64,000 nucleotides of DNA from Escherichia coli 042 (lineage in GTDB: Bacteria; Pseudomonadota; Gammaproteobacteria; Enterobacterales; Enterobacteriaceae), in NCBI RefSeq assembly GCF_000027125.1, contig NC_017626.1; one strand, written 5' to 3'. The position numbers and the translations under genes are program-made. Shown piece by piece: positions 40,384 through 52,452 of this stretch. The notes beneath the pieces were generated by a model. It had not been told where the DNA came from. It saw only the letters and a program-made list of their open reading frames with translations, and made no database searches. How positions within the stretch are numbered: position 1 is the stretch's first letter; each line of letters opens with the position of its first letter.

Positions 40384-40530
40384 ATGGCAAAGCCGATCAT
40401 CACGCTCAATGGCCTAAAAATCGTCATTATGTTGGGAATGCTGGTCATTATTCTCTGCGGTATCCGTTTTGCCGCCGAGATCATCGTGCCGTTTATTCTC
40501 GCATTATTTATTGCTGTTATATATAACTAA
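40384..40530 (+). pseudogene. tqsA: tqsA (AI-2 exporter, ydgG) 5' fragment: 46 native codons then 2 element-derived codons and TAA
   Basis: ATG 40384. [46 protein letters not shown] then YN-stop. The reading frame resumes at 51547. Confidence 0.9.
40512..40520 (+). repeat. attL core (TGCTGTTAT; flanking similarity ...TAAC)
   Basis: ATTGCTGTTATaTaTAAC at the left junction versus AATGCTGTTATtCtTAAC at the right junction. Confidence 0.8.
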
Positions 40531-40594
40531 TTTCACTTAACGCATTGATTTAATTAAATGATTTGCACTACAAAAAGTGCCATAAATCGCAAAA

Positions 40595-40616
40595 TGACTA
40601 CACCAGTGACTACACC
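40595..40616 (+). repeat. Tandem TGACTACACC x2 (arm-type integrase site candidate), left arm
   Basis: TGACTACACCAGTGACTACACC is identical to 51396-51417. Similarity continues for ~35 more bp (..TCGgTGCAC.., ..ACAACGTGgAACA..). Confidence 0.6.
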
Positions 40617-40934
40617 GTTCGGTGCACTGTATGAAACAACGTGGAACAAATAGACACAAGAAATATACAGGCGGGTCATCTTTCCAGGGGGAAGCGCGCT
40701 AATTCATGAGGGGCGTTAATGTTGATATGGGGATCCCCATAACGGGGCTACCGGATTTTTTTTCCGGTTAACTGTTAATCAGGCTGGTGGGCTTTACCTG
40801 TTTTGTAGGAGTGGTCATTATGACCATTCAGACAATGACCTTAATCAGAACTTTTCGCTAAAAAATGACGTTGGTCACGTCGTCCGGAAAGCACAAAATC
40901 CCGTCAATTTTTAATTAACGGTTAAACCGTCTTT

Positions 40935-40980
40935 TGTCACGGCGTGTCACTGGTTGTCACTCTCCGTCACGGTATGTCGC
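40935..40980 (+). repeat. Five TGTCAC-type hexamers at exact 10-bp phasing
   Basis: TGTCAC 40935, TGTCAC 40945, TGTCAC 40955, CGTCAC 40965, TGTCGC 40975. Lies directly 3' of the 93-aa gene. Confidence 0.7.
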
Positions 40981-40986
40981 TACTCG

Positions 40987-41268
40987 TTAACGCCGTAACC
41001 GCTCCGGCTTCTTCCAGTGGTACGTAATTTTCTCCGTTTCCCGATACAGTGCCACGCGGCGATTGTAGGCCAGCATTTCAAGAACGCGGATCCGTATGTT
41101 GCGCATATCCACATCATTAAGCTGGATACCATCACGGCGCATCACCTCAGCAACCACACGCGCGTAATTTTCGGCGGTCACGCTGTCCGGCTGCGTGGCC
41201 TGTTCGTCATGCTGCTGGCTGATTCCGGTAACGCGGCGGATTAATCCCAGTAGTTCGGCTTCTGTCAT
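40987..41268 (-). CDS. Hypothetical island protein (93 aa)
   Basis: ORF 40987..41466 trimmed to ATG 41268 behind a GGGGG RBS. The upstream part of the long ORF is just translation of the cos repeat. MTEAELLGLIRRVTGISQQHDEQATQPDSVTAENYARVVAEVMRRDGIQLNDVDMRNIRIRVLEMLAYNRRVALYRETEKITYHWKKPERLRR. Confidence 0.55.
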   Translation of the reverse strand: MTEAELLGLIRRVTGISQQHDEQATQPDSVTAENYARVVAEVMRRDGIQLNDVDMRNIRIRVLEMLAYNRRVALYRETEKITYHWKKPERLRR

Positions 41269-41301
41269 TGTGCCCCCATCGCTCTGATAGTCTGGTGTCG
41301 T

Positions 41302-41365
41302 CGGGTCCTTCCTGGAATTATGGCCCGTTACGGGGCGGCGACCTCGCGCGTTTTCACTATTTATG
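41302..41365 (+). other. Lambda-type cos site, copy 1 (cosN GGGCGGCGACCT at 41333-41344)
   Basis: CGGGTCCTTCCTGGAATTATGGCCCGTTACG|GGGCGGCGACCT|CGCGCGTTTTCACTATTTATG. This closely matches the recalled lambda right end ..GTTACG, the 12-nt cohesive end, and left-end nt 13-33. Confidence 0.8.
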
Positions 41366-41382
41366 AAAATTTTTCGGGATCC

Positions 41383-41479
41383 ATGTCCGGTTTCTCTGCA
41401 AGTTAACCATATGAAAAATATAAAAACATGCTTTCCATGAACCGGACATGCGCAAAAAACAGACACTAAAACCGGACAT
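41383..41479. promoter_or_regulatory. cosB-like array: three copies of ATGTCCGGTT (one forward, two inverted) around an AT-rich spacer
   Basis: ATGTCCGGTT 41383-41392; AACCGGACAT 41440-41449 and 41470-41479. AT-rich 41397-41430 sits between the first and second. Confidence 0.6.
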
Positions 41480-41547
41480 CGAACCAGTTAACCGAAAGTG
41501 TGCACAAATCACATGCATTGCTGCGAGTGATTAACAAGTTATCGGCT

Positions 41548-41982
41548 TTACTGTTCTGTATCGGCTGATTGCTCCATGCTGGCACGGCGAACGCTTATGG
41601 CATGACGCCACCCAGCCAGAAAGCCAGCCATTTTATTTCGTGCCTTGCTCACATCTTCCGGTGAATAGCCGTAAATCTGCAAACCTTCATCAAATCGATG
41701 TTCTGTTTCTTCACTGGAGTACTCGTCACGCTCAGATGAAAGCAGCCTGGCAAACATAATTTTTTCCAGCGCACTGGTTTCTACGTGATATCTGATGGTC
41801 TCAAGACGGCTTTTACCTGAAGACCAAAGCAATGTATGCCCGATGTGATAACCGCCAGACTTTCCGCGATCCGCATTAAGATACGGCATCCCCTGTTTGG
41901 TCCATGCGCGAATAGTGGTTCTGTTAACCTTGAAATGTTCAGCTATTTCCTGCTGACTTACAAAACAAGCTTTATCAATCAT
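41548..41982 (-). CDS. Nu1-like small-terminase-type DNA-binding protein (144 aa): N-terminal winged HTH, unrelated C-terminus
   Basis: FVSQQEIAEHFKVNRTTIRAWTKQGMPYL aligns by eye with lambda Nu1 VNKKQLADIFGASIRTIQNWQEQGMPVL. The gene starts ~70 bp from cos copy 2, as Nu1 follows cos in lambda. Confidence 0.7.
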   Translation of the reverse strand: MIDKACFVSQQEIAEHFKVNRTTIRAWTKQGMPYLNADRGKSGGYHIGHTLLWSSGKSRLETIRYHVETSALEKIMFARLLSSERDEYSSEETEHRFDEGLQIYGYSPEDVSKARNKMAGFLAGWRHAISVRRASMEQSADTEQ

Positions 41983-42050
41983 AATGTTACCTTAACTGCA
42001 TGGTTAAATATTAATCAAGTGGTGGTGGTGTCACCTTCACGGAAAAACGT

Positions 42051-42114
42051 CATAAATAGCGAAAACCCGCGAGGTCGCCGCCCCGTAACGGGCCATAATT
42101 CCAGGAAGGACCCG
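42051..42114 (-). other. Lambda-type cos site, copy 2, inverted (cosN complement AGGTCGCCGCCC at 42072-42083)
   Basis: The reverse complement is identical to copy 1 except 2 positions. Its CGCGGGTTTTCGCTATTTATGA matches the recalled lambda left end exactly. Confidence 0.8.
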
Positions 42115-42115
42115 T

Positions 42116-42138
42116 AAAAAAGCCGGATTTCTCCGGCC
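42116..42138 (-). terminator. Rho-independent terminator of the capsid operon
   Basis: Minus strand GCCGGA-GAAA-TCCGGC followed by TTTTTT. Same module at 44389-44410 and 44751-44773. Confidence 0.7.
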
Positions 42139-42143
42139 TTGTC

Positions 42144-42557
42144 TCAGATGTTTTTCAGTATGCGATCGATGTCGCCGTCATCGCCCTGGTTTCTGCCATC
42201 GTATGCCATGCCAGCTGATACGGCTTGCGGGCTGTGCATGTCCATAAAGTTTTCAAAGGCTGCGGTAAGTTCCGGCGCAACCTTCGGACGTTCCTGCTCT
42301 ATGGTCATGCTAAGGATGCTTTTAGCCGTACCAACATCGATACAAGGCACGTTTGCCATTGCACGCAACAGCGGCTGATAGTCTTTATGCTCATGAAGCG
42401 CCATAATCGCATCAGCGCGCGGCTTGTCCTGCTCTTCCAGTTTGTTTAGTTGATGTACGGCCTCATAGGTTGATAAACCTCTGTCAGCCATTGCCCGCGC
42501 TTCGACTTTAAATTTACTCGCCAGCGGTAGCGTCATGATGCTTTCATTCGTTGCCAT
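42144..42557 (-). CDS. Hypothetical island morphogenesis-operon protein (137 aa)
   Basis: Last gene of the capsid operon. MATNESIMTLPLASKFKVEARAMADRGLSTYEAVHQLNKLEEQDKPRADAIMALHEHKDY... No family recognised. Confidence 0.6.
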   Translation of the reverse strand: MATNESIMTLPLASKFKVEARAMADRGLSTYEAVHQLNKLEEQDKPRADAIMALHEHKDYQPLLRAMANVPCIDVGTAKSILSMTIEQERPKVAPELTAAFENFMDMHSPQAVSAGMAYDGRNQGDDGDIDRILKNI

Positions 42558-42569
42558 CGTTCCCCCTGC

Positions 42570-42905
42570 TTATCGGGCCAGCGGCTGAACGGATACGCCG
42601 GAACCCGCAAAGGCGGCGCATTTTTTCGCATCGGTGTCGACGCTCTCAGGCCAGTTAACGGCGGCAATATTGAATATCCCCGTCTTGTAACACTGTGCTG
42701 ATTTCTGCTTTGACGTGTCCACAGGGTACGAGGTCAGATAAACAGCCTTGCCAGATTCCTGACCATCCCACGGCTTAAACTCGCCATTGTCTGCCAGCAT
42801 CAGCGGGGTAAATTCCTGAATAACGCCAGCATCAGCGGCAAAATGTACCAACGTCGTGGATACCTGCTGACTGCCTGCAAATAACTCAATGTATGGAGTG
42901 TCCAT
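42570..42905 (-). CDS. Head decoration protein, lambda gpD family (111 aa)
   Basis: TPLMLADNGEFKPWDG..., YKTGIFNIAAVNWPE..., KKCAAFAGSGVSVQP parallel lambda gpD TPLMLDTSSRKLVAWDG, YKSGTFRYEDVLWPE, KKRTAFAGTAISIV (recalled). Confidence 0.8.
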   Translation of the reverse strand: MDTPYIELFAGSQQVSTTLVHFAADAGVIQEFTPLMLADNGEFKPWDGQESGKAVYLTSYPVDTSKQKSAQCYKTGIFNIAAVNWPESVDTDAKKCAAFAGSGVSVQPLAR

Positions 42906-42917
42906 AGAATCCCCCCG

Positions 42918-43973
42918 TTAACCAATTTTGACGGTAACAAATTTGCGAATATCTGCCGGTACCGGCTGCGGTGCACTGTGTGTCTGCACGTACTCAATCG
43001 CCGGATCGCCGTCCTCAATCCAGTTTTTCGGGTAAAACATGTTTTGTGTTGCGCCCGTTCTTACCGCTTCCTGATCCATTATCGCACCATAGGCCACCAG
43101 CCCTTTATTGTTGGTGTTACCCAGGACCAGCAAATCAGGCTCAAGGAAATATTTTTCGGTACCATCGCTGTCAGTGTATTTGCCGGAATAGACGATAAGG
43201 GCCAGATCACCAAGATAGCCTTTAAAGCTCACCACTTCGCCCAGGTTTTTACAGGCCAGTTCGGCGGCGGATTCTGAACCACGGGAAAGATCGTACAGCT
43301 CACGGAATTTTTTAAAGCTGCGTAATGTGCGCCATACCTCAGCGCCCATAATCATGACGTTTGCGGGGCAACCAGCCTGATCAGCATAAAGCTCGATGTC
43401 ATAGATTGGGTCGTGCATGTCTTTATCCTGCTCGGACCATTTTTTACCCTTGGCCTGCTCTATGATGCAGTTTTCCGGTATTTTCCAGTCGATTTCATAG
43501 CGTTCTATGCCTTCGCCCTCAATGATGTTTTTTCCGGTCGTTACCGCATTCACCGCCAGCCATTCCACGCGTGCCTTAATGGCGTTTATCTGGCGGCGCA
43601 TGTTGCCAGTAATCAGGCGCATACGGCGATAGGTAGGGTCGTTAAGCTGTGCCGGATCTTCTCCAGCCATGCGCATGATGGTTTTCGTTGGATCGATTTC
43701 GTGCTTTGGCTTCATGTAGCCAGGTTTGATTGTGCTGGTTTCGTACCCTTTATCGCGCTGAACCTGGCTACCCACCATAGGCGAACAAAACGCCGACATG
43801 GTGACTTCTTCAATGTCCAGGGTATCCAGCATGATGTTTTGCGTGCTGAATGTCGCCACGTTCGGGAAAAACAGCGTGGTAAACAGAGGGCTGAATTTAA
43901 AATCCGCAATATCCCCGCGATTCAGGTACATGAAAAGCTGGTTAGTGTTAAGTGCCGTTGCTTTGCCTGCCAT
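42918..43973 (-). CDS. Major capsid protein, lambda gpE family (351 aa)
   Basis: Blocks PGYMKPKHEIDP, DPTYRRMRLI, YSGKYTDSDG..KYFL, LVLGNTNNKGL.AYG, YPKNWIEDGDPA, SAP align with lambda gpE PGYVKPKHEVNP, DPAYRRRRII, YSGQYVENGVKKNFL, MVLGNTQARGLRTYG, YPKNWVTTGDPA, SAP (recalled). Confidence 0.9.
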   Translation of the reverse strand: MAGKATALNTNQLFMYLNRGDIADFKFSPLFTTLFFPNVATFSTQNIMLDTLDIEEVTMSAFCSPMVGSQVQRDKGYETSTIKPGYMKPKHEIDPTKTIMRMAGEDPAQLNDPTYRRMRLITGNMRRQINAIKARVEWLAVNAVTTGKNIIEGEGIERYEIDWKIPENCIIEQAKGKKWSEQDKDMHDPIYDIELYADQAGCPANVMIMGAEVWRTLRSFKKFRELYDLSRGSESAAELACKNLGEVVSFKGYLGDLALIVYSGKYTDSDGTEKYFLEPDLLVLGNTNNKGLVAYGAIMDQEAVRTGATQNMFYPKNWIEDGDPAIEYVQTHSAPQPVPADIRKFVTVKIG

Positions 43974-44179
43974 TATTCACCCCCATAATTTTTATGCATC
44001 CCAAGCGCCGCAAGTAAATAAGAGCGTACAAGTGAACCTATCGACGGCTCCGGCGTCATCAGCGGATCCAGTCCAGCCGCAACGCCAGCTTCATAGTTTT
44101 TTTTGTGGCGCTGCTTGAGCACCTCCACGATTTCGGGGCTTATGTACACCGAAACACCGCCTTTTTTCTCTTCAGCCAT
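43973..44179 (-). CDS. Hypothetical protein, first gene of the capsid operon (68 aa)
   Basis: ORF 43973..44212 trimmed to ATG 44179 (AGGAA RBS); TAATG overlap with the capsid gene. MAEEKKGGVSVYISPEIVEVLKQRHKKNYEAGVAAGLDPLMTPEPSIGSLVRSYLLAALGMHKNYGGE. Confidence 0.55.
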   Translation of the reverse strand: MAEEKKGGVSVYISPEIVEVLKQRHKKNYEAGVAAGLDPLMTPEPSIGSLVRSYLLAALGMHKNYGGE

Positions 44180-44235
44180 AGTAAGAAATTCCTCTTCGAC
44201 TAAAAAAATCATAACTGGATGTTTATCCAGTTATG

Positions 44236-44263
44236 ATTATAATCAGAATTGCATTTTATGCAA
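44236..44263 (-). promoter_or_regulatory. Sigma70-type promoter of the capsid operon (TTGCAT-16 nt-TATAAT)
   Basis: -35 at 44263..44258, -10 at 44241..44236 on the minus strand. The -35 lies inside the palindrome ATTGCAT-TTT-ATGCAAT (44248-44264). Confidence 0.5.
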
Positions 44264-44340
44264 TGATATTGAGTTATGTTGCAAATTATGAAATGATTAT
44301 CCCGATCACGAACGCCAGTGCATCCAAAAACCTCATATGC

Positions 44341-44382
44341 AAAAGCCCGATAAGAACCCTCTGACCTTATCGGGCTTTTTTT
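44341..44382. terminator. Bidirectional terminator hairpin
   Basis: AAAA-GCCCGATAAG-(11 nt)-CTTATCGGGC-TTTTTTT. Confidence 0.6.
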
Positions 44383-44388
44383 GGGCGC

Positions 44389-44410
44389 AAAAAAGCCGGA
44401 TTGCTCCGGC
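44389..44410 (-). terminator. Rho-independent terminator (copy of the GCCGGA..TCCGGC module) after the 74-aa gene
   Basis: Minus strand GCCGGAGCAATCCGGC + TTTTTT. Confidence 0.65.
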
Positions 44411-44430
44411 TATGTGTGCTGTGTGCTGGC

Positions 44431-44655
44431 TCAGTCTCTGATCTCTTTCAGAAATTCTATCAATGCATCTATCTGTTCAGGATTTACCGCCAGCATTTCA
44501 CCGGATAGAGCACATCTCACAAAACCATGCTGATCCTTTTCAATCAGTGCGCCCGTCTCCAGGAATGCGCGGTAATCATTGATGCTCATCGTCTCCATGT
44601 TGTCAGCATGGTATTTATCACGCTGTTTTAATATCTCATCAAATTTCATCGGCAT
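44431..44655 (-). CDS. Hypothetical island protein (74 aa), stand-alone cassette between two terminators
   Basis: GAGGA RBS. MPMKFDEILKQRDKYHADNMETMSINDYRAFLETGALIEKDQHGFVRCALSGEMLAVNPEQIDALIEFLKEIRD. Confidence 0.55.
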   Translation of the reverse strand: MPMKFDEILKQRDKYHADNMETMSINDYRAFLETGALIEKDQHGFVRCALSGEMLAVNPEQIDALIEFLKEIRD

Positions 44656-44750
44656 TGTTTTTTTCCTCTGTTGTGTCTGTTTGTTTCAGATAGTAACTAT
44701 GCCTGACCGTGACGAAAACCCGGTAATGCGCCATACCGTTTCAACTGGTG

Positions 44751-44773
44751 CAAAAAAAGCCGGATTTCTCCGG
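44751..44773 (-). terminator. Rho-independent terminator after the PerC-like gene
   Basis: Minus strand GCCGGAGAAATCCGGC + TTTTTTT. Confidence 0.7.
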
Positions 44774-44781
44774 CTGTTTGA

Positions 44782-45054
44782 TTAGCTGTCCTGGTAATTG
44801 CGCCATATTTCATCACCAGCACCATCTATACCCATTTCGGCATAAGTGCGATCGACTGCCTTTTTCAGGTCTCCGAAATTATCCGGCGGCTCCGGTGCCC
44901 TCTGTGCCTTCCTTGAACATTCCAGCCGTCGCATCGTGATGTGATGCCGTTCCTTGTCTGTCTCCACCAGCTGCATGACTTCACCCCATCGCGCCGCCGC
45001 CCTCCGGTAAAAGCCTTTCGCCTCCAGTTCCTCCGCTATGCGGTCATGTACCAT
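44782..45054 (-). CDS. PerC/Pch-family transcriptional activator (90 aa)
   Basis: ORF 44782..45174 trimmed to ATG 45054 behind GAGGGGG. MVHDRIAEELEAKGFYRRAAARWGEVMQLVETDKERHHITMRRLEC... parallels the PerC/Pch core ..LEEAGLWRRAATRWL.V....TDEERDWI.RRR..C (recalled). Confidence 0.7.
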   Translation of the reverse strand: MVHDRIAEELEAKGFYRRAAARWGEVMQLVETDKERHHITMRRLECSRKAQRAPEPPDNFGDLKKAVDRTYAEMGIDGAGDEIWRNYQDS

Positions 45055-45064
45055 CGTCACCCCC

Positions 45065-45475
45065 TCAGAACGAAATATCATCACCGTAAGGGTCATCGCC
45101 TCCCGCTGGTGGCTGATTACCCTGTGTGCCTGTGGTTTTGCGTCTGTTCCCGCCTGGACGTGCCGCGCGGGCACTGATTACGCTGTCTGCGATAACCTGC
45201 CAGCCCTGCCGCGTTTCTCCGTTCTGTCCGGTCCACTGGCTTACCTGCATCGTGCCGGATACGCTGGCAACATCGCCTTTTTGATGTTTAGCCAGGAAGT
45301 CGGCCTGTTTGCCAAATGCGATGACCGATAACCATAACGTCGCCTGTCCGTCCTGTGCCTGGCTGCATGGCAAAGATACCGCCATACGCGCCAGCGTCAT
45401 CGGTGTGCCCTTGCTGGTCTGTTTTACCTGCGGGTCGTCCACCAGCCGCCCGTAAGCGGCTATCTGTGCCGTCAT
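45065..45475 (-). CDS. ssb: Single-stranded DNA-binding protein (OB fold, Gly/Pro-rich linker, acidic tip DDISF)
   Basis: MTAQIAAYGRLVDDPQVKQTSKGTPMTLARMAV...GNQPPAGGDDPYGDDISF. The C-terminal tip resembles the SSB DDDIPF client-binding tail. Confidence 0.75.
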   Translation of the reverse strand: MTAQIAAYGRLVDDPQVKQTSKGTPMTLARMAVSLPCSQAQDGQATLWLSVIAFGKQADFLAKHQKGDVASVSGTMQVSQWTGQNGETRQGWQVIADSVISARAARPGGNRRKTTGTQGNQPPAGGDDPYGDDISF

Positions 45476-45723
45476 AATTCCACCTCTCCGGTTTTAACGT
45501 TGATGGTTGTTACCTGTTCCGCTTCGGCAATCTCCCGTTCTGTCAGCGTGGCAAAGTTTGCCGCCGCCGTGGTCATGAATGCGCTTATCAGGTCGGGATG
45601 TTCCTTCGCGTATCCTTCCCGCGTGTGGCGGTCTATCGTTCTGATTGCCACCTTTAAGGTGTGCTCAGTCATGTCTAACGCTTTATATTTTGGCTCTGTT
45701 CTGTCTCTGCGTTTTTGGGTCAT
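45472..45723 (-). CDS. Hypothetical island protein (83 aa; start uncertain)
   Basis: ORF 45472..45753 trimmed to ATG 45723 (GAGAGG RBS). ATGA-type overlap with the ssb start. Confidence 0.45.
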   Translation of the reverse strand: MTQKRRDRTEPKYKALDMTEHTLKVAIRTIDRHTREGYAKEHPDLISAFMTTAAANFATLTEREIAEAEQVTTINVKTGEVEL

Positions 45724-45734
45724 TTCTCGCAACC

Positions 45735-45925
45735 TCTCACTTTTTCGCCTCACTTTTTCAAGCGTCTCACTTCGTCGCAGTTGGGATTTTCGGTTTTTCT
45801 ATGTGTGTGTTTCATAAGTATTTTTTTACCCCTCACTTTTGAGGATGTATACAGGTCGAAAAGTGAGGGAGAGCGGGCTAATTTTGGCCCTCTTTCTATC
45901 CCCCTCGCTTTTGCTCCTCACTTTT
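45735..45925. repeat. Iteron cluster CTCACTTTT (6 direct or near-direct copies plus 1 inverted): putative island replication origin
   Basis: Direct copies at 45736, 45749, 45766 (CTCACTTCG), 45832, 45904 (CTCGCTTTT), 45917. Inverted copy at 45858-45869. AT-rich stretch 45781-45830. Directly 3' of the rep gene. Confidence 0.65.
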
Positions 45926-47324
45926 ATAGCGGCGCTACATCATCCCCATCGATACGAATAACCCCATCTTTTTCCAGCTTGTACAGCCAGCGCCGGAAGT
46001 TTTTCATTTCATACCCCAGCTTTTTCATGTCATCACGTAACAGCGGGATCGTGCACTTGTCGCCGTTCTGTGTGCGTGAACGGATGCACCCCCATAGCGC
46101 GGTATGGTTTTCCGTCTTGTTCCCTGCCTCCTCGATGCGCTCCAGTTCAACAGGAGGGCGCGGATCATCCACCACCACCAGCGACGTGATTAATTCACCG
46201 TCAGCGTCGGTAAAAAGCTCCACCACGCGTAAGTCATATGCGGCTTCTTTGAGTTCCTCCGCGTCCTTCATTTTGGTGCATGAGATAACCAGCGCTTCGC
46301 TTCCTGCGTCCTCCCTGCGTATCCGGTATTCAGCATCCAGCGAAGCACGAAATGCACTGGAACCGCGCGCGCCTTTCGTCTCATCCTTGCCGGAATGGTG
46401 AACCACCAGCACCGTGGCCCCTGTGCGTCGTTTCAGTTCGTCACAACCACGGATAAACGCCCCCATATCACGGGAATCATTTTCATCATTCCCACCAAAG
46501 CAACGCGCCAGCGTATCCAGAATAATCATGCGTACAGGTTTACCCGTTTCCCGCTCCACCTGACGGGCAGCGATAACCATTTCATCAACATCAAGCGGGG
46601 CAGCCGGAAAGATGGGGCGGTTTACCAGATACAGATTTTTCACCTGCTCATCGTGCACAACCTCCCAGGCTTTTACACGACGCGGAACACCTATACCGCC
46701 TTCACCAACCACATAGAGAACCGCACCATGTGCAACCCTGCGGCCTCCCCACTGGCGACCAGTGGCAACATGGCACGCCCACGATCCAGCAAGGAATGAT
46801 TTATAGGACCCGCTAGCCCCGTATATGCTGCATAGCGATACCGCCGGAATAATCCCCTTAACCACGTAATCCAGTTGCGTGTCGTATCCGGTAGATCCAA
46901 CGCTCATCGGTAGCGTGGTTTTTCGCTGGTGTTTTTTTTCTTCCGCCGGCTCTTTCCCGCGCACCCGTTCCAGGTATTCGCGCCAGTTCTCCCGCATATG
47001 GCTGTGCATCCCTTCGGGGTAATAATTCGCATCAGTTACACCCGCCGCCGCCAGCTTGTGCGCAATGGCATTAATATTTGATGGCCTGATGTGGCCTGCC
47101 TTGTACAGCCGGACACAATAGCGCCCCTCGTCGATGATTCTCAGGTCTGCCAGTTCATCCAGTTGATCATCAGCCAGCACAACGGGAGGCACATTATCGC
47201 CAGCCAGTCGCCCGTCCTGTTCCTGCCACTGTTTCGCATGTGCCCAGGCATCACTACCCGCAAAAATAATGACTTCGGTCATCTTGTCGTAAGGCTGTTT
47301 TTTTAAGTTCGGTGCGCTTTTCAT
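45924..47324 (-). CDS. Replication initiator ATPase (RecA/RepA-like AAA_25-type core, C-terminal wHTH), 466 aa
   Basis: Walker A GASGSYKS, Walker B MIILDTLARCFGG, VLVVHHSGKDETKGARGSSA sensor region. C-terminal basic wHTH-like tail. Confidence 0.8.
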   Translation of the reverse strand: MKSAPNLKKQPYDKMTEVIIFAGSDAWAHAKQWQEQDGRLAGDNVPPVVLADDQLDELADLRIIDEGRYCVRLYKAGHIRPSNINAIAHKLAAAGVTDANYYPEGMHSHMRENWREYLERVRGKEPAEEKKHQRKTTLPMSVGSTGYDTQLDYVVKGIIPAVSLCSIYGASGSYKSFLAGSWACHVATGRQWGGRRVAHGAVLYVVGEGGIGVPRRVKAWEVVHDEQVKNLYLVNRPIFPAAPLDVDEMVIAARQVERETGKPVRMIILDTLARCFGGNDENDSRDMGAFIRGCDELKRRTGATVLVVHHSGKDETKGARGSSAFRASLDAEYRIRREDAGSEALVISCTKMKDAEELKEAAYDLRVVELFTDADGELITSLVVVDDPRPPVELERIEEAGNKTENHTALWGCIRSRTQNGDKCTIPLLRDDMKKLGYEMKNFRRWLYKLEKDGVIRIDGDDVAPL

Positions 47325-47620
47325 TTCTTGCCCCTGAATCCGTTAACCATGGTTTTCAGCTTCTGGATGTTTGCCCGTGCCCTGGCGTTGCTGGTGGGCA
47401 CGTTATGCGGCGCGGTCTGTACCAGAGAAAAATCACGCCGGAACTGATAAACAGGCATCACGCAATCATATTCGTAACCTTCACGGCGGTAGGTTACGCG
47501 CCGTTCTTCCACGTCCTTAATCATTACCGTGCCGCCGTACTGGTCGCGGTAAATATCACCGCGCGTAAATTTAGGGTGAGTGTTGCCACTGGCAGTTAAG
47601 CCAGAATATTTAAGTTTCAT
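47321..47620 (-). CDS. DUF4222-like small protein (99 aa)
   Basis: ..GDIYRDQYGGTVMIKDVEERRVTYRREGYEYDCVMPVYQFRRDFSLV resembles the DUF4222 pattern as I recall it. ATGA overlap with rep. Confidence 0.5.
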   Translation of the reverse strand: MKLKYSGLTASGNTHPKFTRGDIYRDQYGGTVMIKDVEERRVTYRREGYEYDCVMPVYQFRRDFSLVQTAPHNVPTSNARARANIQKLKTMVNGFRGKK

Positions 47621-47625
47621 TATTT

Positions 47626-47859
47626 TTATTCTCCGGTGTGCTGTTCTTTATATCTGTCGTGCAATAGATCTATTTCTTGCAGTTCCATTATTACAGGCTC
47701 AAGAAGCGTTATTAATGCTGTGGCAATTCTTGATTTTTGTTTGTCGCGTTCATTGTCGCCAAGTGTTTCAAGCCATATGCGCAATATTTCCATCATGTTT
47801 TCACTGTGAGAAAGTGCAAGAAATGCGCGGTCTATTGTTTGGTGGTAAATATCACGCAT
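47626..47859 (-). CDS. Hypothetical island protein (77 aa)
   Basis: MRDIYHQTIDRAFLALSHSENMMEILRIWLETLGDNERDKQKSRIATALITLLEPVIMELQEIDLLHDRYKEQHTGE; helical, overlaps the upstream gene by 8 nt. Confidence 0.5.
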   Translation of the reverse strand: MRDIYHQTIDRAFLALSHSENMMEILRIWLETLGDNERDKQKSRIATALITLLEPVIMELQEIDLLHDRYKEQHTGE

Positions 47860-48319
47860 GGCTTACATCCTCAGGAAATTTTCTTCTATAACGCGCCTCT
47901 GCCACATATTCCGCATAATCGGCGGCGATATTCAGTACATCAAGCCCCGTTGATTTATATTCTCTCGTGGAAAGTAAGAAAAAAGCCGCTCTAATAAGTT
48001 CTGGCATTGACGAAAGCGCATCAGCCGCATCATCAGGAACGCCGGAAAATTCCTGTTTCAGGGAATTAAAACGATCATCACGCATAACCCCCCCCCCATT
48101 TTCACAATCAGCAATCAGGATAGCTTTGGCCTCATTCAGCGCCGTATCAGCACTAAATTGCATGACAGCCAGTGAGTGAGGAACGAAAGCACCGGCATAT
48201 TCTGTTTCGCTGGTGGCGTGCTTATGTGCCCTGTCCGCGATAACAGAAATATCAATCAGCGCGTGCATCAGCGTTTTGATGGCTTCGGCGGCTGCGTCCG
48301 GTGTGGTTTTATTGTGCAT
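47852..48319 (-). CDS. Hypothetical island protein (155 aa)
   Basis: MHNKTTPDAAAEAIKTLMHALIDISVIADRAHKHATSETEYAGAFVPHSLAVMQF... No family recognised; part of the tightly packed early operon. Confidence 0.55.
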   Translation of the reverse strand: MHNKTTPDAAAEAIKTLMHALIDISVIADRAHKHATSETEYAGAFVPHSLAVMQFSADTALNEAKAILIADCENGGGVMRDDRFNSLKQEFSGVPDDAADALSSMPELIRAAFFLLSTREYKSTGLDVLNIAADYAEYVAEARYRRKFPEDVSHA

Positions 48320-48521
48320 AAAGCATCCCCTGAATATTCGTGTTAATCATTCCGGCACGTTTTGTGATTTCCTGTAATGATTCCCTTGTGGCGACAATTG
48401 CTTCATCTGGTAAGTGGTAATTACACACCACGCGACCTTTATCCACATTGACCAGTAGCTGCCCTGTGAATTTCTCACGAAACTGAATGCGGTTAAGGTC
48501 AGTAAGTGACAGATTAATCAT
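48309..48521 (-). CDS. Hypothetical island protein (70 aa)
   Basis: ORF 48309..48563 trimmed to ATG 48521 behind AGGAGG. MINLSLTDLNRIQFREKFTGQLLVNVDKGRVVCNYHLPDEAIVATRESLQEITKRAGMINTNIQGMLYAQ. Confidence 0.5.
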   Translation of the reverse strand: MINLSLTDLNRIQFREKFTGQLLVNVDKGRVVCNYHLPDEAIVATRESLQEITKRAGMINTNIQGMLYAQ

Positions 48522-48711
48522 GGCGCACCTCCTGACGAATACGGGCGGCAAATACAGCAACACAACCGGACGGGCAACGGTTACGCGCTTCGCGTTCCGT
48601 CCAGGCGGTTACGTGGATGATTTGAGATTCTCCGGCACTCAGTGCCAGAAAACGCCACACAAAGGCCGTTTGTGTGTGTACAAGGTGTGGTATATGATTT
48701 ACAGCAACCAT
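48514..48711 (-). CDS. Small protein resembling Icd-like host cell-division inhibitors of P4-type elements (65 aa); tentative
   Basis: ORF 48514..48786 trimmed to ATG 48711 behind AGGAG. ..FVWRFLALSAGESQIIHVTAWTEREARNRCPSGCVAVFAARI fits my recollection of the F.W.F.A....V.A..E.EAR......FAAR pattern. Confidence 0.4.
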   Translation of the reverse strand: MVAVNHIPHLVHTQTAFVWRFLALSAGESQIIHVTAWTEREARNRCPSGCVAVFAARIRQEVRHD

Positions 48712-48784
48712 AACGGCTCCTAGTTTACGTTGTTGGTTAGAAGCCCTGCGAGTGGTAACGACACTTGCGGGGCTTTGTCTTTTC
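48703..48784 (+). ncRNA. Candidate ~80-nt antisense RNA across the RBS/start of the first early gene
   Basis: Extended -10 TGgTATATG (48688-48696) upstream. Then a 14-bp stem (48741-48754 / 48762-48775, two G-U pairs only on the plus-strand RNA) followed by TGTCTTTTC. Confidence 0.3.
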
Positions 48785-48802
48785 ATCGATTACCTTGATA
48801 AA

Positions 48803-48884
48803 GGTGTCAGCCACTATATTAGTAACGGGTGTCAGCCACGTCAATAGTGTTTTTCCGTTTTCTTGTGTGTATACTGTCAGCCAC
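48803..48884. promoter_or_regulatory. Divergent switch region: three GTCAGCCAC operators interleaved with face-to-face promoters
   Basis: GGTGTCAGCCAC at 48803-48814 and 48828-48839; CTGTCAGCCAC at 48874-48884. Minus-strand promoter TTGACG (48844..48839)-17 nt-TAATAT (48821..48816). Plus-strand TATACT at 48870-48875. Confidence 0.6.
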
Positions 48885-48905
48885 CTAATAACGAGGAAAT
48901 CAGAT

Positions 48906-49085
48906 ATGGCAACAAAAGCAGTTAATGCAAAATCCAAAAAGCTTGAGGCTCGAGTACCACACGCAATAGCTGATGCTGTAGAAAATTTAAAGGAAGATGG
49001 CGAAAGTACAGGGCAATTTATCGTTTCGGCACTTGAAGGCGAGATCAAACGCCGCCAGCGCCGCAAGGCCAAAGAATCAGAATAA
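48906..49085 (+). CDS. Ribbon-helix-helix-like small DNA-binding protein (59 aa): candidate island repressor
   Basis: ORF 48765..49085 trimmed to ATG 48906 behind AGGAA. MATKAVNAKSKKLEARVPHAIADAVENLKEDGESTGQFIVSALEGEIKRRQRRKAKESE has a beta-strand/helix/helix pattern typical of Arc/CopG proteins. Confidence 0.55.
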   Translation: MATKAVNAKSKKLEARVPHAIADAVENLKEDGESTGQFIVSALEGEIKRRQRRKAKESE

Positions 49086-49127
49086 TCACTATCAGCGCCG
49101 TGGTGTGAGGTATTACGGCGCATTGCT

Positions 49128-49316
49128 ATGCAGGACAACACAATGACCGATAAAGAATTGACCAAAACATTATCACCGGCACGGAAAAGACGGCGCAGAA
49201 AGATAGAGCATGAATCAGAAAGATTCGCACCATGTGCTTTTGCCCTTGAGCAATTCCTTAAAGAGTACAGGGAAAAGCGCTCATTGCAGGTATGGCAACG
49301 AACTGAACCAGACTGA
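49128..49316 (+). CDS. Possible second small gene of the plus-strand unit (62 aa, basic)
   Basis: ORF-track MQDNTMTDKELTKTLSPARKRRRRKIEHESERFAPCAFALEQFLKEYREKRSLQVWQRTEPD. Weak RBS, so may instead be non-coding. Confidence 0.3.
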   Translation: MQDNTMTDKELTKTLSPARKRRRRKIEHESERFAPCAFALEQFLKEYREKRSLQVWQRTEPD

Positions 49317-49411
49317 TTGCATTGCCCACCAGCCTGATAGCGGCTATCATCCCCGTGCTTATGTTTGGGATCACACACACAAACGGCGCAGCGGGTTATC
49401 TGTTCAGAAAG

Positions 49412-49439
49412 GCGGCTCCATTTCGGGGCCGCTTTTTTT
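49412..49439 (+). terminator. Rho-independent terminator of the plus-strand unit
   Basis: GCGGCTCC-ATTTC-GGGGCCGC followed by TTTTTTT. Confidence 0.65.
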
Positions 49440-49585
49440 ATACCTGAAAAACCCCAATTTTGTTGTTTTTCAGTTTCACCAGGGCGAACGAATCCCCGCC
49501 CACGTTCTGGCGTATATTCAATCTTCATGGTTATAGCTCTGTGTTCAGATGATTGATGTGTGGCGGCTGCGTGCCGCCAGCGTGA

Positions 49586-49774
49586 TTAATGAACTGCCTT
49601 GCAGCTATCCTTCCAGGCCAGAACCTCGGATAAAGACCAGCCAACGGAACGACCGCCAAGTTTACGACGTGATGGGAATTGTCCGGCCTTTTCCAGGCGG
49701 TAGCGACACGTACGGCTAAGGCCGGTTAGTTTTTCGCATTCTTTTTCACGTATAAACCGATCAGTGCTTAACAC
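49586..49774 (-). CDS. alpA: AlpA-family HTH regulator/excisionase (62 aa, GTG start)
   Basis: Strong GGGGGGG RBS. ..DRFIREKECEKLTGLSRTCRYRLEKAGQFPSRRKLGGRSVGWSLSEVLAWKD is the AlpA/MerR-like HTH signature. Confidence 0.85.
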   Translation of the reverse strand: MLSTDRFIREKECEKLTGLSRTCRYRLEKAGQFPSRRKLGGRSVGWSLSEVLAWKDSCKAVH

Positions 49775-50107
49775 TATTGCCCCCCCTTTCGTTTCTTAAA
49801 GAGTCATCAGGTGTCTTATTGTGTCGTATTGTTCCCGCTAGAGTGATGAATGGCAAATATTGAGGATGTATGATTTACAGAAAATGAAACAGTAAGAATA
49901 AAATCTTTTAAATTCATGTTAATACAAAGGCATAAAATATTGTTTCATGCCTTTTTTCTCGCTCTTTAAAGAGTGATTCGCTAGTGTATAAAAAACCAGT
50001 GACACATTAAAAATCAGCCACTTATAAATCTGTATGCTTTTTCGCCTCTTGTTCGTGGTTGTTCCACATTGTTGCTCATTGTTGCACGTTGTATCTGTTC
50101 GCATATA

Positions 50108-50123
50108 CAGTATGCGCATACTG
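50108..50123. promoter_or_regulatory. Perfect 16-bp palindrome CAGTATGCGCATACTG just 3' of int
   Basis: No loop, so more likely a protein-binding site than an RNA hairpin. Adjacent ATTGTTGC direct repeats at 50068-50087. Confidence 0.4.
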
Positions 50124-50140
50124 AAAAAACACGAAAAAAA

Positions 50141-51370
50141 TTATTTTCTTCTGGCTACTGGTAGCGTGGTTACGTTTTCATGTGTTCCCGCCAGTATCCC
50201 TAACCGCTCCGTCCACATATCCAGCGCATTGCGTTTAGCATCCAGATAACGGGAATGATTATAAACTCGCTGCATTCCTGGCATCTGGTGGCCTGTAAGC
50301 TGCTCCACGACATGCGGATCAACGCCTAAATCGTTCAGCATGGTTGTAAAGGTGCGCCGGATGTCATGCAGTGACCAGTGAGGATGATTAAGCCTCCTGT
50401 GCGCTAATCTTCCATACTGCGATACGCTGGCCTCCTGTTTCACTTCCCCCAGCAATAAGCCCGTGTGCCTGTTCTGCTCCACCAGCTGCGTGACGAACGG
50501 CAGGATCGCTTCCGGTATGGGCCGGAATATTGCGACCTTCGTTTTGCTGTGCTCCTTCGGAACGGTCCATAGCATTTCCGTAAAATCCCACTCCCCGATC
50601 TCCGATAACCTCAGTTCTACCGTTCTGGCTCCGAAGACAATCAGGAGGCGGATTAACGCGACGTAGTAAGGGGAGAATATTTTTTTGTCCAGTGCCTGCA
50701 ATAATTCGCCAAGTTCTTTGTTACTTAAGACACGTTCGCTTATATCCGGTTTTTTCCCAACGTCCGCCACGTTCAGATCGTCCAGAACGTTGCTGATTGC
50801 ATAGCGCCGCCTACGGCAGAACTTAAGCGCCTGTTTGCACGCCTGTAGCACGAATCCGGCAGTAACAGGCGTTCGCTTTGCCACCTGGTCAAAACAGGCC
50901 AGCCAGTGCCGTAGCTCGCATTTATCCAGCGGCATAGCACCAATCTGCTGTATTACGTGATTATTAAGTCGCCTTTTCAGGGCGATATAATCCACGCGGT
51001 TTTCCTTTACGTAATACTCAAGCCAGTAGGTGAGCGCATCGCCAACCGTTACCGGCTTTAACGCTTCCTGTACGGTGTAATTAAGCTCATGACGTGGATT
51101 TTTCCCCTCTGCCAGCCATGCGCGACACTGGGCGGCTTTTTCCCTGGCTGATTTCAGGCTCAGATCAGGATAACTTCCCAGCTTAATGCGTTCGGGTCGT
51201 GTCTCCCTTCCCGTTCCGGCCCTGTATGTGAAATACCAGGTCAATTTCCCTGATGTTAAATATTTCACGCTCAGGTTTCCGCCATCACTATAAAACGTGT
51301 TTTTCTCCGCTGGCTTACCATGAAGTTTCCTTAGCAAGGTATCGCTCAGTTTGTTCATTGCTCTGCTCAC
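50141..51370 (-). CDS. int: P4-type tyrosine integrase (DUF4102 arm-binding N-terminus), 409 aa, GTG start behind GAGGGGG
   Basis: N-terminus ..LSDTLLRKLHGKPAEKNTFYSDGGNLSVKYLTSGKLTWYFTYR... Catalytic ARTVELRLSE (R), HDIRRTFTT (H..R), GHQMPGMQRVYNHSRY (H..Y). Confidence 0.9.
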   Translation of the reverse strand: MSRAMNKLSDTLLRKLHGKPAEKNTFYSDGGNLSVKYLTSGKLTWYFTYRAGTGRETRPERIKLGSYPDLSLKSAREKAAQCRAWLAEGKNPRHELNYTVQEALKPVTVGDALTYWLEYYVKENRVDYIALKRRLNNHVIQQIGAMPLDKCELRHWLACFDQVAKRTPVTAGFVLQACKQALKFCRRRRYAISNVLDDLNVADVGKKPDISERVLSNKELGELLQALDKKIFSPYYVALIRLLIVFGARTVELRLSEIGEWDFTEMLWTVPKEHSKTKVAIFRPIPEAILPFVTQLVEQNRHTGLLLGEVKQEASVSQYGRLAHRRLNHPHWSLHDIRRTFTTMLNDLGVDPHVVEQLTGHQMPGMQRVYNHSRYLDAKRNALDMWTERLGILAGTHENVTTLPVARRK

Positions 51371-51395
51371 GTTTTACCCCCTCTTTACGAAAAAG

Positions 51396-51417
51396 TGACT
51401 ACACCAGTGACTACACC
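51396..51417 (+). repeat. Tandem TGACTACACC x2 (arm-type site candidate), right arm, just upstream of int
   Basis: Identical to 40595-40616. Confidence 0.6.
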
Positions 51418-51545
51418 GATCGTTGCACAAAGGGCTACAACGTGAAACAAGCTGGAACAAGGAAAATCACAAATCTGTTGATAATCAAAAACATAATGCA
51501 CAGCCTGAAACATTATGAAACAGCAAAAAACACCAAATGATAAAA

Positions 51546-51554
51546 TGCTGTTAT
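51546..51554 (+). repeat. attR core (TGCTGTTAT)
   Basis: Direct repeat of 40512-40520. The tqsA reading frame resumes as [14 protein letters not shown]. Confidence 0.8.
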
Positions 51555-52452
51555 TCTTAACCCGCTGGTGCAACACATGGTCCGCTGGCGAGTGCCGCGT
51601 GTACTGGCGGTGTCGATTTTGATGACCATCATCGTGATGGCGATGGTGTTGCTGTTAGCTTATCTGGGTTCCGCGCTCAACGAGTTGACGCGGACGTTAC
51701 CGCAATATCGCAACTCTATTATGACGCCGCTGCAAGCGATTGAACCGTTGTTGCAACGCGTAGGGATTGATGTCTCAGTTGACCAACTGGCGCATTACAT
51801 TGATCCGAACGCGGCGATGACGTTGCTCACCAACTTATTGACGCAGTTATCTAATGCCATGTCATCAATATTTTTATTGCTGCTGACGGTGCTGTTTATG
51901 CTGCTCGAAGTGCCACAATTGCCCGGAAAATTTCAGCAAATGATGGCGCGTCCGGTTGAAGGGATGGCGGCGATTCAGCGTGCGATTGACAGTGTTTCTC
52001 ATTATCTGGTGCTGAAAACAGCCATCAGCATCATCACCGGCCTGGTCGCCTGGGCGATGCTCGCCGCACTCGATGTTCGCTTCGCTTTTGTCTGGGGATT
52101 GCTGGCCTTTGCGCTTAATTACATCCCTAATATTGGTTCAGTTCTCGCAGCAATTCCCCCTATCGCTCAGGTACTGGTGTTTAATGGCTTCTACGAAGCG
52201 TTGTTGGTGCTGGCGGGATATCTGCTGATTAATCTGGTCTTCGGCAATATTCTGGAGCCGCGCATCATGGGACGTGGGCTGGGGCTTTCGACATTGGTGG
52301 TATTTTTGTCGTTGATTTTTTGGGGATGGTTGTTAGGACCGGTGGGTATGCTGCTTTCCGTGCCGTTGACAATTATTGTCAAAATTGCGCTTGAACAAAC
52401 AGCGGGAGGTCAAAGCATCGCCGTTCTGTTAAGCGATCTCAATAAAGAGTGA
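51547..52452 (+). pseudogene. tqsA: tqsA 3' portion (codons ~44-344), separated from its start by the island
   Basis: Frame GCT GTT ATT CTT AAC CCG CTG GTG... = [30 protein letters not shown]... through LSDLNKE-stop. Confidence 0.9.

Follow-up and report, generated by a model that had tools for sequence, protein, structure and literature searches.

An island of about 11 kb lies inside tqsA (ydgG) in the stretch of DNA analyzed here, which is 64 kb long and is referred to below as the window. The island has the make-up of a PICI resembling EcCICFT073, and its features are collected in Table 1. The same att core, GCTGTTAT, stands at 40513-40520 and again at 51547-51554, and tqsA is split at about codon 46, with its N-terminal 46 codons ending near position 40520 and its reading frame resuming near 51547. 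The original prediction held that the island carries no large terminase gene. Pfam scans indeed found no terminase family among the main island ORFs, and a tblastn search of the whole window with lambdoid TerL and two TerS sequences found neither terminase genes nor a helper prophage.

Table 1. Coordinates of the island, its genes and its cos elements within the 64-kb window
Feature	Position	Strand	Description
tqsA (ydgG), two halves	40384-40530 and 51547-52452		Flank the island
PICI	40521-51554		About 11 kb, EcCICFT073-like, inserted in tqsA
93-aa gene	40987-41268	-	PHROG 1561, unknown function; conserved; just past cos2; also in CFT073 (C_RS07030)
cos2	41299-41479	+	Second cos, inverted relative to cos1, 3′ of rppA
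cos2 cosQ-like element	41299-41312	+	
cos2 cosN	41333-41344	+	
cos2 R box 1	41382-41392		CATGTCCGGTT; followed by an A/T-rich spacer
cos2 R box 2	41440-41450		AACCGGACATG; inverted
cos2 R box 3	41470-41479		AACCGGACAT
78-nt inverted repeat	41302-41379 and 42037-42114		91% complementary; cosQ-cosN of cos2 and cos1; brackets rppA
rppA	41548-41982	-	144-aa protein, assigned to Rpp (redirecting phage packaging) by homology
cos1	41983-42118	-	Island cos, predicted to be Rpp-dependent, with PICI-specific cosB; aligns with CFT073 cos1
cos1 R3-PICI	42036-42019	-	AGGTGACACCACCACCAC; bp 48-65, as proposed by Murialdo & Feiss (PMC9026076)
cos1 cosN	42083-42072	-	GGGCGGCGACCT
cos1 cosQ-like element	42118-42104	-	TTTACGGGTCCTTCC
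137-aa gene	42144-42557	-	Between the gpD-like gene and cos1; PHROG 1999, unknown function
gpD-like decoration gene	42570-42905	-	Pfam
gpE-like capsid gene	42918-43973	-	Pfam
perC (ORF)	44782-45174	-	Pfam PerC
ssb	45065-45475	-	Pfam SSB
Replication gene	45924-47324	-	466 aa, AAA_25 domain; Pfam
DUF4222 gene	47321-47620	-	Pfam
alpA-like gene	49586-49774	-	62 aa; assigned by sequence and by position relative to CFT073
int	50141-51370	-	Pfam integrase

Several features of the late region deserve separate mention. The 137-aa ORF also aligns, at E = 5.8e-9, with profile positions 496-567 of phrog_53, the C-terminal end of a head-maturation protease family, and may contain a scaffold-like domain; together with the gpE-like and gpD-like genes it forms a partial head-gene set in the island. 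Capsid (c1499) and decoration (c1500) homologues have been reported to show no phenotype (PMC6092414). The list of ORFs extends the 93-aa gene to 159 aa by way of an upstream GTG whose reading frame runs through cos2; this GTG is probably not a real start. A GC-rich hairpin motif, AAAAAAGCCGGATTTCTCCGGC, occurs three times (42113-42142, 44386-44415 and 44750-44779), each time at a late-region gene end, and the three copies are probably repeated intrinsic terminators.

The 144-aa ORF that lies between the two cos sites opens with an ATG and has an AAGG Shine-Dalgarno sequence about 8 nt 5′ of it. A scan for promoters and terminators around the gene gave no signals above chance. The protein had looked new because RefSeq labels it a 'hypothetical protein' and because neither Pfam nor NCBIfam holds a model of the Rpp family, scans of both returning sub-threshold generic HTH matches only. 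The original prediction described it as a protein with a Nu1-like N-terminal winged helix-turn-helix (wHTH) and an unrelated C-terminus, and proposed it as a candidate packaging redirector that would be a 'second, different solution' from Rpp.

We found the first part of this description to be correct, although the similarity is slight. The two wHTH strings that had been aligned by eye are identical at 12 of 28 positions, and in the PHROGs search the sole meaningful match was the TerS family PHROG 57 ('terminase small subunit'), at E = 4.2e-8 and confined to the HTH (residues 7-46 of the ORF). The Phage_Nu1 model of Pfam reaches 14.6 bits over residues 8-40 (E = 0.026), short of its cut-off of 30 bits. 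Among PDB sequences, two lambda TerS chains show similarity, 6hn7_B with E = 0.057 and 1j9i_A with E = 0.1, and in a three-sequence comparison phage 21 gp1 shares 14 of 36 positions with the ORF (E = 4e-5). The N-terminal resemblance to the lambda Nu1/TerS wHTH is weak and, across these comparisons, reproducible. Past about residue 70, no similarity to Nu1 or TerS was found in Pfam, PHROGs, PDB sequences or phage 21 gp1, as expected from the claim that the remainder is unlike Nu1. The ORF scores below the gathering threshold for the Nu1-type small terminases (PF07471) and lacks their oligomerization and TerL-binding domains. The reading of the ORF as a truncated TerS was rejected.

Full-length comparisons place the protein elsewhere. 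In a phmmer search against PDB sequences, the top match is to the RppC chains of 6hlk and 6hn7 (E = 4.5e-31), over ORF residues 2-125, a span that takes in the wHTH and most of the C-terminal region. Moreover, the ORF is identical at 142 of 144 residues to C_RS07025 of CFT073, which is likewise 144 aa long, is the only ORF of that length at the corresponding position of EcCICFT073, and occupies the position of c1503; c1503 of EcCICFT073 is RppA, 144 residues, AAN79972.1 (Fillol-Salom et al., 2019; PMC6739421). Relative to the CFT073 protein, the ORF carries the substitutions A62T and V129I, both conservative. Its residues 1-50, MIDKACFVSQQEIAEHFKVNRTTIRAWTKQGMPYLNADRGKSGGYHIGHT, are the RppA sequence printed in Figure S1 of the supplement to that paper, and the residues mutated there (R21, T22, L51 and F121) are all kept. 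The recognition helix reads N20-R21-T22-T23-I24-R25-A26-W27-T28-K29 and includes the conserved R21, T22, R25 and K29. The ORF thus combines full-length homology to Rpp with a TerS-like wHTH and a C-terminal domain that bears F121 and L51; its surroundings are also those of an rpp gene, about 100 bp 3′ of a lambda-like cosQ/cosN and a non-phage cosB, with no terS or terL. A single-sequence AlphaFold2 model predicts helices at 71-83, 90-103 and 108-142, with low confidence (mean pLDDT 44, pTM 0.32); their positions roughly parallel the six helices of RppC, in a model that is too poor to give structural support.

Because it matches RppC, is nearly identical to the CFT073 protein, agrees with the printed RppA sequence and retains the mutated residues, the ORF is almost certainly an rppA allele in a PICI of the EcCICFT073 family, and it would be expected to work by the RppA/RppC mechanism. 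None of the data speak against this assignment. The protein is an already known one, nearly identical to a protein that was characterized genetically, structurally and mechanistically in work published in 2019. The proposal that it redirects packaging was right, to judge from its 99% identity to RppA and its homology to RppC. The notion of a second, different solution was mistaken, since the protein is Rpp itself, as the RppC E value, the 99% identity to the CFT073 protein and the match to the printed RppA all indicate. Similarly, the C-terminus is indeed unrelated to that of Nu1, but it corresponds to the Rpp dimerization and TerS-contact domain (α4-α6) described in PMC6739421. The value of this check is that it keeps a copy of rppA from being reported as a new mechanism.

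A redirector unlike Rpp, for example a stand-alone Nu1-like binder that recruits TerL directly or that partners differently with the helper, would also present a Nu1-like wHTH only, with a C-terminus unlike Nu1. These traits do not favor such a protein, because they are exactly the features of Rpp. Both the degree of identity to RppA and the strength of the RppC match argue against it, as does the dependence of RppA island transfer on phage TerS (PMC6092414) and on the TerS-Rpp interaction (PMC6739421), and we regard the chance that the ORF is such a redirector as vanishingly small.

We also considered whether the ORF might be a generic HTH regulator of the MerR or excisionase type with no role in packaging. 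Sub-threshold Pfam matches to HTH_17, MerR_1, HTH_28 and similar families (E = 0.002-0.08) and an NCBIfam match to BldC (E = 0.003) could be read this way, and the DNA-binding domain of Rpp does resemble the MerR/BldC fold (PMC6739421). However, all of these HTH matches fall under the curated cut-offs (17.1 bits against 27 for HTH_17, 16.9 against 21.6 for MerR_1, 17.4 against 77 for BldC) and cover only about 25 residues each, whereas the full-length homology is to Rpp. Further, the island already contains an AlpA-type regulator, and the place of the ORF behind cos1 is the published position of rpp (PMC9026076). Assignment to an unrelated HTH family such as the excisionases had been named at the outset as the result that would count against a packaging role, and the HTH_17 and MerR_1 scores give no such assignment. 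We consider a generic regulator extremely improbable, and this reading was rejected on the sub-threshold scores and the full-length homology to Rpp.

By megablast, 82 of 5426 complete E. coli genomes contain the entire segment from 41250 to 42150, which holds cos2, rppA and cos1. The match in CFT073 is 98.8% identical, lies inside EcCICFT073 and adjoins genes annotated as 'major capsid protein' and 'head decoration protein'. This distribution bears on whether the island could be defective and its rppA inactive or in decay, as might be suspected from the interruption of tqsA, from the stretch of about 1.3 kb in the replication-gene region that has no DNA match to EcCICFT073, and from the absence of a visible helper phage in the window. 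Against this stand a full-length ORF that differs by just two conservative substitutions and has every functionally tested residue in place, intact cos1, cos2, int, alpA and replication gene, and the recurrence of near-identical cos2-rppA-cos1 segments in those 82 genomes. We judge decay to be highly improbable, and we treat the gene below as an rppA allele.

The original prediction put a cos site directly upstream of the gene, and cos1 occupies that place. Counted from the start of the cohesive end, which is the packaged left end, the ATG of rppA is at bp 102; bp 102 has also been reported for PICI-C, and this cos-rpp layout was described by Murialdo & Feiss (PMC9026076). The string TTTCCGTGAAGGTGACACCACCACC within the cosB of cos1 is the primer named 'cosB-cos1 EcCICFT073' in the supplement to PMC6739421. 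The cosQ-cosN portions of cos1 and cos2 form the long inverted repeat that brackets rppA. The cosQ side of cos2 in this island is closer to cos1 than to the PhiR12-type phage cos treated below, and in CFT073 the cosQ sides of cos1 and cos2 differ, a pattern that suggests sequence exchange between cos1 and cos2 in the present island copy.

The mechanism that we propose for the ORF is carried over by its 99% identity from a protein family in which the experiments were done on RppA and RppC. Like them, the protein would consist of an N-terminal wHTH DNA-binding domain (approximately residues 1-64) followed by a C-terminal domain for dimerization and TerS contact, and would form a homodimer by way of the C-terminal helix α6; F121 is required for homodimerization, and L51 lies at the TerS interface (PMC6739421). 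The wHTH would mimic the DNA-binding domain of the helper small terminase (a Nu1-type TerS such as those of lambda and phi80) and, by standing in for the second TerS domain, would create a heterotetramer of the form TerS-Rpp2-TerS. This complex would lose recognition of the phage cosB, and phage packaging would be blocked for that reason, which is seen as interference. At the same time, helix α2 (R21, T22 and their neighbors) would allow the complex to read the island-specific cosB of cos1, about 100 bp 5′ of rppA, and recognition of this site would lead to packaging of the island; R21 and T22 are required for cos1 recognition (PMC6739421). According to the published proposal, the free C-terminus of TerS would engage the TerL of the phage for cleavage at the lambda-like cosN, and island concatemers would then enter phage capsids.

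The published basis for this scheme is experimental. The RppA of CFT073 has been shown to bind TerS, to block phage packaging and to support cos1-dependent packaging of the island, and transfer of the RppA island depends on the interaction between TerS and Rpp (PMC6739421). Deletion of the CFT073 rppA allele abolished cos1-dependent transfer and relieved the interference with phage. EcCICFT073 has two cos sites, and its transfer needs cos1 and the TerS of the helper (PMC6092414).

The second cos site has a different likeness. It is the 'EcCICFT073 cos2' printed in Figure S1 of PMC6739421, its cosB is of the classical type with three R boxes, and these boxes (CATGTCCGG) resemble the annotated R boxes of phage 21 (CATGTCGG) with one extra C. 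Over 179 nt, cosQ included, cos2 is 93% identical to the cos of the lambdoid phage PhiR12_1, which lies just 5′ of the small terminase gene of that phage; across the approximately 100 nt of cosB there is one mismatch. Prophages of E. coli likewise match cos2 from cosN through the third R box. In PhiR12_1 and in all six of the prophage copies checked, the match sits about 40-80 nt 5′ of a gene for a 169-aa TerS, either WP_000235436.1 or a relative, with TerL next in order. When cos2 was aligned with seven phage and prophage copies, the three R boxes were invariant and the spacers between them variable.

The 169-aa TerS has C-terminal domains of the Nu1 family, matching PF07471 at profile positions 62-163 (E = 1e-18), and is 40% identical to phage 21 gp1, and its N-terminal 48 residues show no match to the Nu1 DNA-binding domain. 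Given the near-identical cosB and the association with this 169-aa TerS, cos2 looks as if it had been copied directly from the cos of lambdoid phages whose TerS forms a third specificity class. The helpers of cos1 and RppA would be phages with a TerS of the Nu1-DNA-binding-domain type, namely lambda and phi80 and reportedly also the 21-type. Judging from sequence, it is conceivable that the island follows a dual strategy, in which cos1 with RppA would serve helpers of the latter kind and cos2 would serve PhiR12-type helpers independently of Rpp; we put this forward tentatively, as a proposal whose likelihood falls somewhat short of even. If it is true, the cosB of cos2 provides a testable explanation of two-cos islands, a question left open in PMC6739421. 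A search of the literature collection available to us, which is incomplete, yielded no account of where cos2 came from, none that proposes such a dual strategy and no relevant literature on PhiR12 phages, and the cos2 result may be unpublished.

Of the systems with which the ORF can be compared, lambda Nu1 and phage 21 gp1 (PF07471) have the N-terminal wHTH in common with it, at 12/28 to 14/36 identity, but not what follows. Rpp dimerizes by its C-terminus and not by its DNA-binding domain as Nu1 does, and it reads a different cosB. In structure, RppC superimposes on 1J9I with an RMSD of 1.6 Å over 51 Cα atoms (PMC6739421). A functional parallel exists in Gram-positive bacteria, where the SaPI Ppi and the SaPI TerS reach the same outcome, with helper packaging blocked and redirected to the island (PMC6739421). 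The SaPIs, however, use two proteins and headful (pac) packaging, whereas Rpp does both jobs as one protein in a cos system, and there is no sequence relationship between Ppi or the SaPI TerS and Rpp.

RppC of EcCIEC2733.1 (PDB 6HLK; 6HN7 is its complex with residues 1-98 of lambda TerS) is homologous to the ORF over residues 2-125. Both proteins have a wHTH and a helical C-terminal domain, and the recognition-helix motif RTT(I/V)RAWTK is found in both. RppC is 153 residues long and is reported to be about 44% identical to RppA; it binds lambda TerS more strongly than RppA does, and the residues of the dimer interface are poorly conserved between the two, which form no heterodimers (PMC6739421).

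The closest relative of the island as a whole is EcCICFT073. The packaging module at 40986-44429, including the gpE-like, gpD-like and 137-aa genes, is shared with it at 95% DNA identity, and the order cos1-rppA-cos2 is common to both islands. By contrast, DNA at the int end is only about 85% identical, and EcCICFT073 sits between phoQ and roxA, whereas the present island lies inside tqsA. The part of the replication-gene region that has no DNA match to EcCICFT073 (approximately 45634-46969) is flanked by sequence that is 85-95% identical, and EcCICFT073 has a replication protein of 584 aa from the DNA primase family, compared with 466 aa and an AAA_25 domain here; this difference looks like a module swap inside the island family. 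Because it is found in tqsA rather than at the EcCICFT073 site and because part of its replication-gene region is unrelated, the present island is a new copy or a mosaic of a known family and not a new system, and it is an example of modules being exchanged about a cos1-rppA-cos2 cassette that is itself conserved.
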